From positions 1 to 32,000 of the forward strand of contig NZ_SNUY01000018.1 in the NCBI RefSeq assembly GCF_004376175.1: 32,000 nt of DNA, read 5' to 3'. The notes beneath the pieces are model-generated. The model was not told the DNA's origin. It saw only the letters and a list, made by a program, of their open reading frames with translations, and did no database searches. Shown here piece by piece: positions 25,772 to 30,675 of the stretch; the stretch's first letter is position 1, and every line of letters starts with the position of its first letter. Both the position numbers and the translations under genes were made by a program. The stretch is from Halalkalibacterium halodurans (GTDB lineage: Bacteria; Bacillota; Bacilli; Bacillales; Bacillaceae_D).

Positions 25772-26452
25772 TTAAGATGGTTTGAGAATCGTAATGACGT
25801 GCCGAAGAATTTTCGCAGTTAGTCCCCAAATGACATACGATTGATAGTAATAAAAGGATTCGGTGATTTGACGTGTACTTTTTTGATAGGCGCTTTGATT
25901 GGCAATTCGCTCAATGGGAAACCCTGCTCCAGGCTCGAAATGAACATTTATCCGATATTGTTCAGGAGGGTGACTGATAAAATGGTCAATGGGAACCGTG
26001 AAAACGTGGTCTACCTCCGCTTGATTCAATGGATAATCGTTCTTGTGCGGAATAGAGCCTATGACTGGATAAATTATCCCTCTGAATGGTGTGACTAGCA
26101 CATCTAATGAAGTAATCGGTGCGATGACTGACGAAGGAATTCCAAGTTCCTCGCTCGTTTCGCGGATCGCAGCTTCTTCAGGTGAAGCATCCTCAGGATC
26201 AATGCGTCCTCCAGGGAAGCAAATTTCTCCCGGCTGTTGCTTTAACGTGTGTGCCCTTACTTCAAATAAAACATGCACCCCGTCGTCTTTTTCAACAAGG
26301 GGAATGAAGACGGCAGACTTTTTGACGTACTCCTCCCCAAGAATACCAGCATGATAGCTTAACAATTGGGATTTCAGCTGTTGTAGAGAATGCAATACGA
26401 AGTCCTCCTCACGTTTTCCACTAGCAAATCTCTCCTCCTTTGAGTATAACAT
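25772..26452 (-). CDS. Nudix hydrolase, CoA pyrophosphatase type
   Basis: Nudix box GGRIDPEDASPEEAAIRETSEELGI, preceded by VLFEVRAHTLKQQPGEICFPGG (NudL/Nudt7-type signature). The ATG at 26452 has no SD. An in-frame TTG at 26395 has gaggagga 7 nt upstream and may be the true start. Confidence 0.8.
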   Translation of the reverse strand: MLYSKEERFASGKREEDFVLHSLQQLKSQLLSYHAGILGEEYVKKSAVFIPLVEKDDGVHVLFEVRAHTLKQQPGEICFPGGRIDPEDASPEEAAIRETSEELGIPSSVIAPITSLDVLVTPFRGIIYPVIGSIPHKNDYPLNQAEVDHVFTVPIDHFISHPPEQYRINVHFEPGAGFPIERIANQSAYQKSTRQITESFYYYQSYVIWGLTAKILRHVITILKPS

Positions 26453-26578
26453 ACCGTATTTAAGAAAAACTGTGATATTATCTAACGAAAATGCTGAAAC
26501 ATCAAGAGAGGTTGGGTATTCTAGAATCAGGAACGGTCACTGACCTAGCTCCAATTGTTCTCTCTACTCTCCCCCATG

Positions 26579-26611
26579 GACTATCCGCAATCCGCGGATA
26601 GTCATTTTTTT
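26579..26611 (+). terminator. Orphan + strand rho-independent terminator with no annotated gene upstream
   Basis: Perfect 10-bp stem gactatccgc / gcggatagtc, 5-nt loop, then a-ttttttt. Only about 125 nt separate it from the divergent Nudix start. Confidence 0.6.
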
Positions 26612-26625
26612 ACTTTAAGGCGTCA
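26612..26625 (+). repeat. End-motif copy S0 (actttaaggcgtca)
   Basis: Direct repeat of 29940-29955 actttatatggcgtca. The 13 shared bases are identical; the two copies differ by a 2-nt indel and one substitution. Confidence 0.55.
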
Positions 26626-26630
26626 ATTGC

Positions 26631-26653
26631 TCTTTCATTATATCGATTAAACC
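26631..26653 (+). repeat. End-motif copy S1 (tctttcattatatcgattaaacc)
   Basis: The core tcattatatcg (26635-26645) is a perfect 11-bp inverted repeat of 26772-26782, with flanking similarity (..aacc / ggtt..). Confidence 0.65.
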
Positions 26654-26763
26654 ATCCTAATTTTGTAAATGTGTAGCTCGGAAATACATATTGCCTTCAT
26701 CTGAGAGACATAGTGTTTAAGCTGATCTAAATATTCCGAAAGTTGATGCTAATGCCTGGCCGA

Positions 26764-26785
26764 AGGTTGACCGATATAATGACCA
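26764..26785 (-). repeat. End-motif copy S2 (reverse complement ggtcattatatcggtcaacc); candidate left terminal repeat overlapping the promoter
   Basis: Contains cgatataatga (inverted copy of S1) and gatataatgacc (26773-26784), a perfect 12-bp inverted copy of 26881-26892. Begins with TG at 26768. Confidence 0.65.
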
Positions 26786-26795
26786 GAAGTATAAA
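26767..26795 (+). promoter_or_regulatory. Candidate promoter of the transposon operon
   Basis: ttgacc (26767-26772), 17 nt, then tataaa (26790-26795). The -35 box and spacer are covered by end-motif S2, which would allow autoregulation. Confidence 0.5.
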
Positions 26796-26827
26796 ATCTG
26801 GAGAAAGGAAAAGACGTCCCCCATAAA

Positions 26828-26853
26828 TGTGAAACTACGCCAACAGTTTCACA
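26828..26853 (+). promoter_or_regulatory. Perfect 9-bp hairpin covering the GTG start of the first transposon ORF
   Basis: tgtgaaact - acgccaac - agtttcaca. Flanked by two agacgtcc boxes (26812-26819 and 26856-26863), each containing the palindrome gacgtc. Confidence 0.5.
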
Positions 26854-27437
26854 GGAGACGTCCACCCCAAAAAAGATTATGGTCATTATATCAAATTATT
26901 CCTTGGTTGAGAAGCAATCTGGCGTTTTTTGTTAGAAGTACGGAACGAATCCCCTGCCCTTGTTGTGGAGGAACACTTTCAGTGGCAGGAAGCCGGAAAC
27001 GTGCATGGTATAAAAGCAGTGGCGAGCGCTCCAGGCTTGTGATTCGAAGGCTATATTGTGAGGCATGCGATAAGATTCATCATGAACTCCCTGATATTCT
27101 TGTGCCTTATAAAAGGTATGATGCGGAGAGTATAGAAGGTACCGTTTCTACACCACCACGTACAGAGGCAGCGGTGGATGAAGCAACCATCTTTCGATGG
27201 AAGAACTGGTTTCAGGTGTGGGTGGCGTATGCCATCGGCTGCCTCCGGTCTATCGCGATACGTTTTGATCTGCCTGTGGAGGAATTGTCCGAATCTCCAC
27301 AAACCGTACTTCACTCCCTGGGACAATATGTAGGTATGGAGGAGGGATGGCTGAAGAGAGCTGTCCGTTCCATGACAAATTTAAATCTTTGGGTCACAGA
27401 CCCGTTCCGCATTTCTGGCCGGACTGCTCTGGAGTAA
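26829..27437 (+). CDS. Zinc-ribbon protein, DUF6431-like (transposon accessory protein)
   Basis: CPCCGG-x29-CEAC cysteine pairs, then IHHELPDILVPYKRY, which I recall as the DUF6431 signature. First gene of the operon. The GTG start has no convincing SD, so the start is uncertain. Confidence 0.65.
   Translation: MKLRQQFHRRRPPQKRLWSLYQIIPWLRSNLAFFVRSTERIPCPCCGGTLSVAGSRKRAWYKSSGERSRLVIRRLYCEACDKIHHELPDILVPYKRYDAESIEGTVSTPPRTEAAVDEATIFRWKNWFQVWVAYAIGCLRSIAIRFDLPVEELSESPQTVLHSLGQYVGMEEGWLKRAVRSMTNLNLWVTDPFRISGRTALE
26881..26892 (+). repeat. End-motif copy S5 (ggtcattatatc) inside the first ORF
   Basis: Perfect 12-bp inverted repeat of 26773-26784. Its last 10 nt (26883-26892, tcattatatc) are a direct copy of S1 positions 26635-26644. 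Confidence 0.6.
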
Positions 27438-27473
27438 ACTCATGCTATACCAATGAATGGGAGGCATGAGAAG

Positions 27474-28826
27474 ATGAAAAGTCAACGGAAAGCGGAAGAA
27501 ACAGCCGCGGAACGTATGCAGTTAATCTCCCCTCTTTTGGCGGAGGGGTTGGATGCTGGCAAAGCAAGGAAAATCAAGGCTGATATCTGTGAAAGAGCAG
27601 GTGTTTCGGAAAGGACCATCCGCCGGTATCTTTCCCAGTACCGTAACGAAGGGTTCGAAGGCTTAAAGCCGAAGGAAAAAGGAAGAAAACCTGCCAGGAC
27701 AGGGATCCCTCCTGCTTTACTGGAGGAGGCTATCCTTTTGAGGAGGGAGGTTCCGGGGCGGAGTGTCAGCCAGATCATTCAGATTCTTGAGTGGGAAGGA
27801 AAGGCAGAGCCGGGAGAATTAAAAAGGAGTACGCTCCAGGAAAAACTGGCTGAACGGGGCTACAGTTCCCGGCAAATGCGGATGTATACAAGCAGTGGAG
27901 TTGCCGCAAGAAGATTTCAAAGAAGGTACCGGAACAGCCTTTGGCAGTCTGATATCAAGTATGGCCCCTTTCTACCGATTGGTCCCAACGGGACCAATAA
28001 GCAGGTATACCTAGTCTTGTTTATTGATGACGCCACAAGATATGTTCTTCATGGTGAGTGGTATCCCACACTGGATCAGTCCATTGTCGAAGACTGCTTC
28101 CGTAAAGCGATACAAAAGGCGGGACTGCCTGAGGCCGTCTACTTTGATAACGGAAAACAGTACCGGACGAAGTGGATGGGGCGAACCTGTTCTAAACTGG
28201 GTATCCGTTTATTATACGCAAAGCCGTACTCACCTGATTCGAAAGGGAAGGTGGAAAAGTTTAATAGGAACGTTCAGGCCTTTATGGATGAAGCAATGTT
28301 GGAAAAACCGAAAACATTGGATCAGTTTAACCATCTCTTCCAGGCCTGGCTGAGTGAATGTTATCAGAATAAACCCCACTCTGCTTTGGACGCAGCCAGT
28401 CCTGAAGCTGCGTTCCGGTCCGATTCCAAAACGCTTCGTTTCCCTGAGGTGGATGTACTGGCCAATGCCTTTTTGCATTGCGAAGAAAGAAAAGTAGATA
28501 AAGCAGGCTGTATCAGCTTTATGGGCAAGAAATACGAAGTGGGTCTCTTGTTTATTGGCAGGAAGGTACAAGTGGTTTATGACCTGGCGGACATTTCAGA
28601 AGTAACCATTGAATATGAAGGGCATTCTCCGTGGAAAGCAAGAGAACTGGAGATCGGAGAGCGCGCAGGCAAAAGACCAGTTCTGCCGGATCACCTTCTG
28701 ATCCAGGAAACAGACCACTCCCGATTACTACAGGGAGCTGAACAAAAACTGGAAGAACGGAAACAGATTCAAGCCCCTGCCGTCTCCTACCGGAGAGTAA
28801 GGAAGGAGGAAAACGGCTATGTTTGA
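27474..28826 (+). CDS. DDE transposase, Mu/TnsB/TniA-like (HTH + rve core + C-terminal barrel)
   Basis: HTH ICERAGVSERTIRRYLSQY. DDE candidates are D in LWQSDIKY, D in AVYFDNGKQY and E in SKGKVEKFNRN (35 residues after the second D). The C-terminal segment RKVDKAGCISFMGKKYEV...GRKVQVVYD resembles the Mu transposase C-terminal domain. RBS gggagg lies 9 nt before the ATG at 27474 (the track start at 27453 lacks an SD). Confidence 0.85.
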   Translation: MKSQRKAEETAAERMQLISPLLAEGLDAGKARKIKADICERAGVSERTIRRYLSQYRNEGFEGLKPKEKGRKPARTGIPPALLEEAILLRREVPGRSVSQIIQILEWEGKAEPGELKRSTLQEKLAERGYSSRQMRMYTSSGVAARRFQRRYRNSLWQSDIKYGPFLPIGPNGTNKQVYLVLFIDDATRYVLHGEWYPTLDQSIVEDCFRKAIQKAGLPEAVYFDNGKQYRTKWMGRTCSKLGIRLLYAKPYSPDSKGKVEKFNRNVQAFMDEAMLEKPKTLDQFNHLFQAWLSECYQNKPHSALDAASPEAAFRSDSKTLRFPEVDVLANAFLHCEERKVDKAGCISFMGKKYEVGLLFIGRKVQVVYDLADISEVTIEYEGHSPWKARELEIGERAGKRPVLPDHLLIQETDHSRLLQGAEQKLEERKQIQAPAVSYRRVRKEENGYV

Positions 28827-29619
28827 AGCTTTTTATGAATTAACTCATACACCCTTTTCCCGGGCTATTCCAACGGAAGAGCTATATAATTCCTACCTGC
28901 TGGAAGAGACACTGGGCAGATTGGAATACGCTGCGGAACGCCAGCTATTTGGAGTCGTTACAGGGGATTGCGGCACAGGAAAAACAACCACGATTCGTCG
29001 GTTTATGGATGGGCTGGATCCTTCCAAGTTCTCGCTTTTATATATTTCCGATTCGAAGCTGACGCCCAGGAACTTTTACAGAGGCGTTCTTGAACAGCTC
29101 GGCTGCGAATCTAAGTTTTATCGAGGAGATGCGAAGAGGCAGCTCCACAAAGAGATTGAACTGATGCGTGGAATCCATGGTATTCAGCCGATTGTAGTAG
29201 TGGATGAAGCCCATTTACTGGACCGTGAAATGCTTGAAGAGGTTCGGTTCTTATTGAATTTTAAAATGGATGCTCAAAGCCCGATGGCCCTTATACTGGT
29301 CGGCCAAAACGAACTTTGGGACCGCCTGAAGCTCCAGTCTTATTCGGCGATCCGCCAGCGAATTGACTTACAGTGCAAGCTGGTTCATTACGACCGTTCA
29401 GAGACAAAGGAATACATGAAGCGCCATCTGTCCTATTCCGGTGCGAAGCAGGAGATTTTTTCGGATGGGGCAGTAGATTGTATTTATAATTTTTCTAGTG
29501 GTTCCGCCCGGCTGATTAACAAAGTGTGTACCCATAGTCTTTTATACGGGGCACAGAATAAGCGCAGGATTATCGATGATCATATGGTGAAACAGGTGAT
29601 AGAAGGAGAACTATCTTGA
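28819..29619 (+). CDS. AAA+ ATPase, ExeA/TniB/MuB-type transposition helper
   Basis: F..L...PFS N-terminus typical of ExeA-like proteins. Walker A GDCGTGKTT, Walker B VVVDEAHLL. RBS aaggagg. 8-nt overlap with the transposase gene. Confidence 0.85.
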   Translation: MFEAFYELTHTPFSRAIPTEELYNSYLLEETLGRLEYAAERQLFGVVTGDCGTGKTTTIRRFMDGLDPSKFSLLYISDSKLTPRNFYRGVLEQLGCESKFYRGDAKRQLHKEIELMRGIHGIQPIVVVDEAHLLDREMLEEVRFLLNFKMDAQSPMALILVGQNELWDRLKLQSYSAIRQRIDLQCKLVHYDRSETKEYMKRHLSYSGAKQEIFSDGAVDCIYNFSSGSARLINKVCTHSLLYGAQNKRRIIDDHMVKQVIEGELS

Positions 29620-29849
29620 TGTGGGAATGTCGGTTTATCGCCTATTCTAAGCTTATGAAGTGTTGGCTTTTGGTAAAAGGGGAATATGGCCGCTTCCTGT
29701 ATGAGGGAACCCGATTTTATATGCGTTTTGATGAAGGAGTCTTCCTTCCTTGTCAGCTCGAATTCGATAGACAGTGGTATGTGACCATCGGTGATGAGGG
29801 CATACGACTTAATTTGAGAAAGAACGAAGAATACCAAGTTTATATGTAA
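29619..29849 (+). CDS. Small protein, DUF5348-like, 76 aa
   Basis: The start overlaps the ATPase stop (TGATG). RBS aaggag lies upstream. The pattern G.Y.RF......F.....LPC....EF....WY.T.G resembles DUF5348 as I recall it. An alternative TTG start lies at 29616. Confidence 0.55.
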   Translation: MWECRFIAYSKLMKCWLLVKGEYGRFLYEGTRFYMRFDEGVFLPCQLEFDRQWYVTIGDEGIRLNLRKNEEYQVYM

Positions 29850-29855
29850 TTAATA

Positions 29856-29890
29856 GGGAAGCGATGCACAACCAAGCTTCCCTTTCATTT
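29856..29890 (+). terminator. Terminator of the transposon operon
   Basis: Stem gggaagc / gcttccc, 13-nt loop, tail tttcattt. Confidence 0.55.
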
Positions 29891-29903
29891 GGACAAAATA
29901 GGG

Positions 29904-29918
29904 AGCAATATCGGGACA
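29904..29918 (+). repeat. End-motif copy S4 (agcaatatcgggaca)
   Basis: Shares atatcgg and a ..aca tip with the S2 reverse complement (cattatatcggtca). An alternative right terminus would end at CA 29918. Confidence 0.4.
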
Positions 29919-29939
29919 AAGTTTCCCGTCTTCCGCATG

Positions 29940-29955
29940 ACTTTATATGGCGTCA
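29940..29955 (+). repeat. End-motif copy S3 (actttatatggcgtca); candidate right terminal repeat
   Basis: Inverted match to 26768-26785 (13 of 18, one gap) and a direct match to S0 at 26612-26625. Ends in CA. Confidence 0.55.
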
Positions 29956-30006
29956 GTAACAACATAGTAATCATGAGGTTCGTTACAAAAAAGGAGTTGA
30001 ATCAAA

Positions 30007-30675
30007 ATGATCAAGAGAGGATTCGTTGTCCTAGTACTTATGGCGGCTATGTTTTCAAACCCTGCCTTTGTCCAAGCCCAGCAGCAGGCTCATGTCAGAG
30101 TGTTACATGCTTCGCCTGATGCTCCACCAGTAGATGTGTATATTGATGGAAAAAAACAGATGGAGGGCGTGCCATTTAAGCAAACGAGCAGCTATTTCAA
30201 CGTCCCTGCTGGGGATCATATGATCACTATTTTTGCAGCAGGGGATGATCCGGCAGAAACCCCTGTGATTGAAGAAACTTTATTAGTCGAGGCTGGGAAA
30301 AATTACACAGCAGCTGTCGTAGATGAAGTAGATGCGATCCACTTAGTTGTTTTAGAAGATGAACAAGAGGTGAATCGAGGAGGAGCGGCTAAGCTTCGAG
30401 CGGTTCACCTATCTCCAGATACACCAGCTGTTCAACTACACCTCTCAGCAGCCAATGTTGACATGCCATCCCTTTCTTTTGAGAATGCGTCCCGTTATAT
30501 CGATCTACCCGCGGGTGCATATGACCTCGACATTCGAATGATTGAAACGGATGATGTGGCAACAGAGGGGAACAGACTGCAGGTGAAAGAAGGAACAGCA
30601 TACACGGCTATTGTTGTCGGACTTCAACGGGGTGAACCTGAGTTTGAAGTGGTTTTACTTACAGACACTAAATAA
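30007..30675 (+). CDS. Secreted DUF4397-like protein (two repeats)
   Basis: Signal peptide MIKRGFVVLVLMAAMFSNPAFVQA. Two repeats begin VRVLHASPDAPPVDVYIDG and LRAVHLSPDTPAVQLHL. RBS aaggag. Confidence 0.7.
   Translation: MIKRGFVVLVLMAAMFSNPAFVQAQQQAHVRVLHASPDAPPVDVYIDGKKQMEGVPFKQTSSYFNVPAGDHMITIFAAGDDPAETPVIEETLLVEAGKNYTAAVVDEVDAIHLVVLEDEQEVNRGGAAKLRAVHLSPDTPAVQLHLSAANVDMPSLSFENASRYIDLPAGAYDLDIRMIETDDVATEGNRLQVKEGTAYTAIVVGLQRGEPEFEVVLLTDTK

Follow-up and report, generated by a model that had tools for sequence, protein, structure and literature searches.

A probable recent insertion of a 3,248-bp DDE transposon with multi-repeat ends and a predicted antisense RNA between the Nudix and DUF4397 genes of Halalkalibacterium halodurans

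The window analyzed here, 32,000 nucleotides of contig NZ_SNUY01000018.1 from Halalkalibacterium halodurans, in whose positions all coordinates are given, carries a four-gene mobile element between a Nudix gene and a DUF4397 gene. An earlier note on the same DNA had described a single array of repeated motifs in mixed orientations, called S0 to S5, with a right-end-like pair, S0 and S1 (26612-26645), lying outside the best left terminus at S2, and had found no clean target-site duplication. Our data place the boundaries of the element as follows.

26708-26713: left target-site duplication, ACATAG, present in single copy in the empty sites L005-L012.
26714-29961, plus strand: the whole transposon, TGTT...AACA, 3,248 bp, delimited by where homology between copies stops and absent as an interval from eight empty sites.
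29962-29967: right target-site duplication, ACATAG, from the empty-site comparison.

Halalkalibacterium (Bacillus) halodurans C-125 (BA000004.3) and other strains encode exactly the DUF4397 protein found in the window. We found that eight loci with such a DUF4397 protein (L005-L012) have their Nudix and DUF4397 genes only about 300 bp apart and represent empty sites. They match the window at 99.4 to 100% up to position 26714 and again from 29962, the two matches overlapping by the 7 bp ACATAGT. Copies of the element located through the ATPase (L001-L004) match the window over 26714-29961 at 99.97 to 100% identity, while the DNA around them is unrelated to it; L001 and L002 are 99.97% identical over exactly this interval between unrelated flanks, and L004 stops at 29961. 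Since all three left junctions carry T at the first position, the last T of the 7-bp overlap was assigned to the element and the duplication was taken as 6 bp, which gives an element of 3,248 bp reading TGTTTAAGC...GTCAGTAACA. Furthermore, when the left-flank hexamer was sought approximately 3 kb downstream, perfect 6-bp duplications were found adjoining ...TAACA at no fewer than 17 independent related insertions, while the 18 duplications collected showed no consensus that would indicate a target-sequence preference. A clean duplication thus does exist, a perfect ACATAG at the true termini, and the alignment of copies places the start of homology at 26714 rather than at the proposed terminus, 26768. 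The uninterrupted Nudix/DUF4397 regions contain S0 and S1 unchanged, in all eight cases, so that these two segments are neither a solo end nor the outer part of a bipartite left end. We regard the boundaries 26714-29961 and the host origin of S0 and S1 as practically certain. Overall, the best explanation of the locus, and a very likely one, is that a 3,248-bp DDE transposon inserted recently between the Nudix and DUF4397 genes of H. halodurans and produced the ACATAG duplication.

We found that the element contains four genes in one operon, encoding a DUF6431 protein, a transposase, an AAA+ ATPase and a DUF5348-like protein.

26879-26935, plus strand: conserved ATG plus 18 codons (MVIISNYSLVEKQSGVFC, stop), the DUF6431 N-terminus, with a T6 run at 26925-26930; the ATG is conserved across relatives.
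26931-27437, plus strand: frame of the DUF6431 zinc-finger domain (Pfam PF20020, E = 7.8e-29), +1 relative to the ATG at 26879.
27474-28826, plus strand: transposase of 450 amino acids with helix-turn-helix (HTH) domains, an rve core and a Mu-transposase C-terminal domain (Pfam: rve, 1.5e-13; Mu-transpos_C, 1.6e-7; HTH_28).
28819-29619, plus strand: AAA+ helper ATPase, TniB/MuB-like, 266 amino acids (Pfam AAA_22, 1.8e-24).
29616-29849, plus strand: small DUF5348-like open reading frame of 77 amino acids (Pfam PF17295, E = 0.002, below the cutoff).
29855-29883, plus strand: hairpin downstream of the operon (GGGAAGCG...GCTTCCC, then TTTCATTT), possibly a weak terminator (fold of -13 kcal/mol, z = -2.6).

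The start of the 450-residue transposase was taken from gene calls in identical copies. Its gene and that of the ATPase overlap by 8 nt and both lie within 26714-29961, and the ATPase scores just under the cutoff against TniB (E of 1e-4; 22.3 against a cutoff of 22.4). The small fourth gene is annotated as DUF5348 by the Prokaryotic Genome Annotation Pipeline (PGAP) in a relative. The hairpin at 29855-29883 did not appear in the output of the terminator scan owing to its 13-nt loop.

The first gene is split. Its domain frame is open from 26829, and the conserved ATG opens 17 to 19 codons that are out of frame with the zinc-finger domain in the relatives as well (L013-L092). Joining the two frames would take a shift of +1 or -1, at a run of T4 to T7 within DUF6431, in 57 of the 58 distinct relatives, and only L084, with T8, is in frame. 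DUF6431 proteins of approximately 180 amino acids that are in frame throughout are common in other clades, and their N-termini (M[VI]I[IV]..Y.L....F[YF]V[RK]S) align with the two pieces of the window joined together. Decay of the gene is unlikely, since the domain frame is open and conserved in multi-copy, evidently active elements. These data suggest that the split gene may be subject to programmed recoding or transcriptional slippage, and the occurrence of both shift directions at one site would be better explained by RNA-polymerase slippage than by a ribosomal mechanism; separate translation of the zinc-finger domain is an alternative. Gene callers and PGAP place the DUF6431 start after the first CxxC. 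In a plasmid of Alicyclobacillus dauci (NZ_CP104065.1, 2013-2486) PGAP starts the gene at a GTG after the first CxxC of the zinc finger, and the gene calls in L001 and L002, of 151 and 132 amino acids, are also too short. Database entries for the DUF6431 protein in the clade of the window are probably too short as a rule.

We found that each end of the element is laid out as three tandem 24-bp repeats, in inverted orientation at the two ends and in the same register in 15 distinct relatives.

26714-26737, plus strand: L1, terminal repeat, TGTTTAAGCTGATCTAAATATTCC; terminal-site matrix score 19.0, second best of 63,954 positions, after R1.
26738-26761, plus strand: L2, GAAAGTTGATGCTAATGCCTGGCC, holding the sense -35 box; internal-site matrix score 16.2, one of the top two together with L3.
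26762-26785, plus strand: L3, GAAGGTTGACCGATATAATGACCA, holding the sense -10 box; top internal-site score, 18.2, and 29.3 with the left-only matrix.
29890-29913, minus strand: R3, CGATATTGCTCCCTATTTTGTCCA, degenerate here; in register with R3 of the 15 relatives, rank 21-131.
29914-29937, minus strand: R2, TGCGGAAGACGGGAAACTTTGTCC; GACGG and TGTCC cores kept in register, rank 24 with the right-only R2 matrix.
29938-29961, minus strand: R1, terminal repeat, TGTTACTGACGCCATATAAAGTCA; best terminal-site score, 22.4, and 26.2 with the right-only matrix.

The site matrices behind these scores were built from the relatives only, with the window left out, and 63,954 positions were scored. The consensus of the 24-bp repeat is ..AA.TTGACGG..T....TGTCC, with the outermost repeat starting TGTT; the consensus sequences of the separate sites are TGTTAcTG....tAaAATGtCC for site 1,.aAAgTTGACGGtaTTgcCTGTCC for site 2 and aaAAaTTGACGGATATAaTGaCCa for site 3, and each site holds 19 to 24 bits of information. 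The first 220 bp of the element are 62 to 76% identical across related loci, and every left end reads TGTT exactly where the flanks diverge. L2 is the most conserved block of the left end in the family (consensus aAAAGtTGACGgtATTGCCTGTCC), while R3 of the window is a weak match that was assigned chiefly by its position. The layout and conservation of the six repeats make it likely that they are sites for the transposase. In two loci from Ammoniphilus (L013 and L015) the TGTT and L1 to L3 are lacking and unrelated DNA lies upstream of the -10 TATAAT; the left ends of these copies may be truncated or replaced.

The left end also holds two promoter-like sites, which face each other approximately 100 bp apart, and a conserved hairpin lies between them.

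26752-26780, plus strand: predicted sense (operon) promoter, ATGCCT at 26752-26757, 17 nt, TATAAT at 26775-26780, conserved in relatives.
26885-26913, minus strand: predicted antisense promoter, TTCTCA at 26913-26908, 17 nt, TG-extended TATAAT at 26893-26885, from the promoter scan (10 of 12 matches plus TG).
26798-26879, minus strand: predicted antisense RNA of approximately 80 nt, with a 5' tail, a hairpin at 26812-26863 and a UUUUCCUUUCUCC tail at 26799-26811, from a covariance model.

Among distinct relatives, the sense promoter has TTGCCT within L2 in 29 of 38 and TATAAT within L3 in 34 of 38, with the spacing fixed at 17 nt. This conservation marks TTGCCT-17-TATAAT as the probable operon promoter of the family. 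In the antisense direction, TTyTCA is found in 29 of the 38, TAyAAT in 35 and the extending TG in 36. The bases that make up this TG and -10 box occupy third- and first-codon positions of codons 3 to 5 of the first gene (ATT GTA TCA), and the CA that yields the antisense TG is kept even where serine is replaced by threonine (ACA) or alanine (GCA). The constraint thus appears to act on the DNA itself. The window copy further contains a second promoter-like pair, TTGACC-17-TATAAA (26767-26795), 15 bp downstream of the conserved pair. The earlier note had placed the operon promoter here; the pair is present, as is the TG at 26768-26769 with which S2 was said to begin, and it is unique to the window copy. 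Since its TATAAA at 26790 is not conserved in relatives, it does not qualify as the promoter of the family, but it may be an additional promoter in the window copy.

The segment between the two promoters is predicted to form a strongly covarying hairpin. In an alignment of 38 distinct sequences, 93.2% of the pair cells of the hairpin at 26812-26863 are paired, compared to 42 to 57% for slid partners; 15 of the 17 pairs show compensatory changes on both sides, and none of 500 shuffles reached the observed value of any measure. Read as minus-strand RNA, the alignment contains 92 G-U and 43 mismatched cells, against 11 G-U and 124 mismatched cells for the plus strand. The minus strand is the better fit in 35 of the 38 sequences, with a mean folding energy of -29.4 against -22.9 kcal/mol, and RNAalifold gives a consensus fold of -18.3 for the minus strand against -12.2 for the plus strand. 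On the minus strand, furthermore, the antisense -10 box lies approximately 20 nt upstream of the hairpin and a conserved U-rich UUUUCCUUUCUCC tail follows it. We built a covariance model from 36 relatives, leaving out the clade of L084, L087, L088 and L092. In 28 further loci, among them the left-out clade at 54 to 57% identity, it matched each element once, without exception on the minus strand, approximately 80 to 185 nt from the left end; it found a single match in the window (26798-26879, minus strand, 81.5 bits) and none in the empty sites. The RNA of the window folds at -31.6 kcal/mol (z = -5.1), and no Rfam family matched 26300-30200 on either strand at E up to 1. These data lead us to favor, with some reserve, an antisense RNA of approximately 80 nt directed against the translation start region, similar to RNA-OUT of IS10. 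We infer that its 5' tail would be complementary to the mRNA directly upstream of the ATG at 26879 and that its hairpin would double as terminator.

Two further observations concern this region. Eight relatives (L061, L057, L091, L078, L050, L022, L025 and L081) have an extra insert of approximately 25 to 35 nt in the 5' untranslated region (UTR), between the sense -10 box and the hairpin, which contains a small palindrome of its own (ATTCGAAA.ATTTCGACA) and is absent from the window copy. The purine-rich GGAGAAAGGAAAA was also considered as a ribosome-binding site and rejected, since no in-frame start follows it and the sole nearby ATG, at 26827, runs straight into TGA.

With the ends, promoters and hairpin in place, the six motif copies of the earlier note can be assigned; S3 and S4 are identified here by the flanks quoted in that note.

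26612-26625: S0, host DNA.
26635-26645: S1, host DNA.
26768-26784: S2, the inner two-thirds of L3.
26881-26892: S5, no transposase site; first-gene start and -10 box of the antisense promoter.
29904-29918: S4, lying across the junction of R2 and R3 and not in the register of the repeats.
29940-29955: S3, inside R1.

The motifs themselves are real sequence. The window has exactly three copies of the 10-mer TCATTATATC (26635, plus; 26773-26782, minus; 26883, plus), compared to a mean of 0.07 in 100 shuffled windows, none of which had three copies. A repeat finder recovered the inverted repeats S1/S2 (26635-26650 with 26767-26782, 16 nt, 88% complementary) and S2/S5 (26773-26788 with 26877-26892, 16 nt, 94% complementary), and reading the sequence bore out the right-side copies at 29904-29918 and 29940-29955, each with its CA end. 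The idea that each end holds several repeats of the kind bound by transposases also stands, with S2 in L3 and S3 in R1, while what had been said specifically of S0 and S1, of S5 and of the terminus falls. Likewise, the similarity between S2 and S3 is one between true sites, which are not a pair of termini. The 10-mer is no binding-site core. Since the conserved sense promoter has TATAAT and the antisense promoter TAyAAT, S2 and S5 read as two convergent -10 boxes with their neighbors, and the third copy of the 10-mer, S1, is a chance occurrence in host DNA. The array is thus not a single one, S0 and S1 being unrelated to the element, and the headline claim of an outside right-end-like pair and a missing duplication was wrong.

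The case for S0 and S1 as the solo right-type end of an earlier copy, or as the outer part of a long bipartite left end with its true terminus at S2 (26768), drew on the resemblance of S0 (ACTTTAAGGCGTCA) to part of R1, on the identity of S1 at 14 of 16 positions with the reverse complement of part of L3, and on the three 10-mers against 0.07 expected. The best local alignment of the 261-bp host flank with the element ends is the 11-bp CGATATAATGA, with a score of 11, a value reached or exceeded in 142 of 1000 dinucleotide shuffles of the flank and also reached in 15 of 100 other 261-bp chunks of the window; the resemblance is within chance. The relatives-only matrices place S0, S1 and S5 at background (ranks 165 to 1000), and S0 is accompanied neither by a second or third repeat nor by an AACA terminus. 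Together with the start of homology at 26714, which rules out S2 as the left terminus, and the occurrence of both segments in all eight empty sites, these results lead us to reject a relic end and refute the bipartite version already, leaving the probability of either at next to nothing. A different reading takes the S5 region (26880-26903, minus strand) as a fourth, inverted transposase site with a regulatory role: it is the second-best match of the left-only L3 matrix in the window, with a score of 14.7, and S5 is identical at 12 of 12 positions to the inner half of L3 in the window copy. However, it is the TATAAT common to both that produces this score, the region has no TGACGG core, and the pooled matrices rank it 323 to 430. 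Real sites are most strongly conserved at their terminal CC, which only 16 of 38 relatives have here, depending on whether codon 2 is GTC or GTT. We consider a fourth site here very improbable.

The hairpin might instead act in the 5' UTR of the sense mRNA, as a stabilizer or in translational control, or as a DNA site, with no antisense RNA being made. It does lie inside the predicted 5' UTR, 502 of its 637 pair cells are Watson-Crick and hence compatible with both strands, and its 3' arm contains GGAG. However, G-U outweighs C-A by approximately 8:1 in favor of the minus strand, and still by 48 to 11 without the two outermost pairs; the conserved TG-extended -10 box before the hairpin and the conserved U/C-rich tail after it both belong to the minus strand, and the plus strand offers no start codon at working distance from the purine-rich tract. 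A role confined to the sense strand or the DNA is thus improbable, although less so than a fourth transposase site. Somewhat better placed, and still unlikely, is a fold-back of S2 onto S5, which in transcripts reading through from the host would mask the ATG, as happens in IS10 and IS50; transcripts started within the element would lack S2, and such a fold-back is a possible additional mechanism alongside the antisense RNA. In the window copy 15 of 16 positions pair, the 5' arm (S2) ends at about the predicted sense start (approximately 26787) and the 3' arm (S5) holds the ATG; in 34 to 36 relatives 80% of the cells pair, or 69% outside the -10 boxes, against 16 to 46% for slid partners. However, any two -10 boxes that face each other will be complementary at their six positions, about half of the relatives have two central mismatches (TGTCC against ATGATT), and covariation support was sought and not found in these relatives, column shuffles giving 68% against the observed 69%, which was reached in 52 of 1000.

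Setting these alternatives aside for the transposon with its predicted antisense RNA, we propose that the element works as follows, by analogy with Mu, Tn7, IS21 and IS10. The HTH-rve-Mu_C transposase would bind the six repeats, pair the ends and cut at TG/CA, while the MuB/TniB-like ATPase would choose and present the target, and strand transfer would be staggered by 6 bp. Since L2 and L3 carry the -35 and -10 boxes of the operon promoter, bound transposase would be expected to repress its own operon. The antisense promoter, which overlaps codons 2 to 5 of the first gene, would make an RNA of approximately 80 nt that pairs through its 5' tail directly upstream of the ATG, ends in the terminator hairpin and holds down translation, as RNA-OUT does in IS10. 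Whether the family is silenced by three layers, namely sites over the promoter, the antisense RNA and an obligatory +1/-1 frame change at the T-run of the first gene, is a more tentative matter, and we put the odds of all three acting together well below even.

Several points weigh against this reading. The metagenome contigs L001 and L002 lack a matching 6-bp duplication at their flanks; probably the flanks of different copies (1-280 and 3529-3880 in L001) were joined in assembly, and we used both contigs for the homology limits only. R2 and R3 of the window match the family matrices only weakly. The -35 box of the window, ATGCCT, matches the consensus at only 3 of 6 positions, and the copy-specific TTGACC-17-TATAAA may be the promoter in use. 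The predicted antisense RNA has an interruption in its U-tail, and the terminator scan did not list it; the predominance of Watson-Crick pairs in the hairpin means that the sense 5' UTR can also fold. Finally, every function proposed for the element is read from its sequence.

The insertion bears on its neighborhood. The transposon has the orientation of the DUF4397 gene and stops 45 bp short of the start codon of that gene (29962-30006). It separates the DUF4397 gene from its upstream region, and expression may now need read-through past the weak hairpin at 29855-29883. On the other side, the host DNA between the divergent Nudix and DUF4397 genes contains a strong terminator-like hairpin (26579-26610, plus strand, GACTATCCGC..GCGGATAGTC plus T7), which is also present in the empty sites and directly after whose T-run S0 starts. 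It has no Rfam match and might be the end of a small RNA or leader.

Among the candidates scored we found 3,009 homologues of the transposase at E up to 0.001; most are from Bacillota, and many lie on contigs of approximately 3.2 kb. A scan of species-representative genomes gave 80 loci, and Tumebacillus avium, whose genome is complete, accounts for at least 13 of them. In its annotation of a complete copy on a plasmid, PGAP uses generic names only, yet names the adjoining IS1380. In the literature on DUF6431, DUF5348 and Mu-like or TniB elements of Firmicutes, ISfinder and TnCentral not being covered, no description of the family was found beyond one preprint and one gene table. The preprint, from 2026, reports a Clostridium strain with 15 copies of a "DUF6431-DDE-AAA cassette" and a 63-kb deletion bordered by two of them, and does not identify the element.

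These results have several implications. Exact coordinates for the ends, the duplication, the six repeats, two promoters and a candidate RNA replace a puzzling array of mixed orientation. The four-gene element is present in many Bacillota genera and usually breaks short-read assemblies into contigs of approximately 3.2 kb, and the consensus of its ends, together with the RNA model and the rule of 6-bp duplications, would allow copies to be annotated and rearrangements to be interpreted. They would also provide a small system in which antisense control, and possibly recoding, could be studied in a relative of Mu. If the three layers of control are real, none of them is known to have been described for this superfamily.

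Judged by its genes, the element is of the transposase-plus-AAA+-helper kind, and its family is widespread in Firmicutes under no name that we could find. An rve gene is followed by an AAA+ gene in one mobile unit, which has TG...CA ends, a target duplication and an empty site. The closest solved transposase structure is IstA of IS5376 (8q4d/8b4h, E of approximately 1e-6), and IS21 (IstA/IstB) shares the order of a transposase gene and an overlapping AAA+ helper gene. The ends of IS21 are built from repeats L1/L2 and R1/R2 with a catalytic CA, and many members make 5-bp duplications (PMC11208146). In contrast, the element studied here makes a 6-bp duplication and has a Mu-type C-terminal domain, and its helper is AAA_22/TniB/MuB-like rather than a DnaC-like IstB, with no PF01695 among the 12 Pfam matches of the ATPase. 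Its score against the NCBIfam model transpos_IS21, 59.8 bits, is far from the cutoff of 160, which places it outside that family.

Tn552 of Staphylococcus aureus (transposase p480, ATP-binding p271) is similar in having a DDE transposase gene followed by an ATPase gene, TG...CA termini and Gram-positive hosts. Tn552 has long terminal inverted repeats made of several transposase sites, and the multi-repeat ends of the element are probably of the same kind. The target duplication of Tn552 is 6 or 7 bp, a range into which the 6 bp of the element fits. However, the element is only approximately 23% identical over residues 154-449, the catalytic half, to S. aureus plasmid transposases, too little to count as a close homologue of p480/p271. 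It has four genes only, none of them a recombinase, and no resolvase (BinL), res site or cargo, while it has two extra small genes (DUF6431 and DUF5348) and three contiguous 24-bp sites per end.

Phage Mu (MuA/MuB) shares the Mu-transposase C-terminal domain, and MuB is the sole solved relative of the ATPase (8xvb, E = 0.0035). Mu has three transposase sites per end, TG/CA ends and 5-bp duplications, with the L sites spaced apart; the element is 3.2 kb long, with no enhancer or phage context and with very distant proteins. Tn7 and Tn5053/Tn402 (TnsB/TnsC and TniA/TniB) likewise combine an rve transposase with an AAA+ target selector and have multiple end sites of roughly 20 bp, and in Tn7 the TnsB sites overlap the transposase promoter and repress it. 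The duplications of these transposons are of 5 bp, and their transposases come with TnsA, TniQ or TniR partners or with target specificity. The element has neither such partners nor such specificity; compared to Tn5053/Tn402, it is without TniQ and TniR, makes a 6-bp duplication and, by its TniB score just under the cutoff, does not fall in that group. The best NCBIfam match of the transposase is to IS481, at 186.1 bits and below the cutoff of 224, which leaves it outside that family too. IS481 elements have ends starting TGT and duplications of around 6 bp (ISfinder); they are approximately 1 kb long and consist of one gene, lacking both an ATPase and a Mu C-terminal domain, in contrast to the 3.2 kb and four genes found here.

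For the proposed control, the model is IS10 of Tn10, which has convergent promoters inside its end, one of them within the terminal sequences, and whose antisense RNA, a short and stable stem-loop, is complementary to the transposase mRNA around its start region. In its convergent promoter-like sites within the end, and in the short structured antisense RNA predicted from them, the element resembles RNA-IN/RNA-OUT. Its transposase family is unrelated to that of IS10, and there is neither sequence similarity nor an Rfam match. In the element, the predicted overlap between the two transcripts is approximately 90 nt and the antisense hairpin would also serve as terminator.

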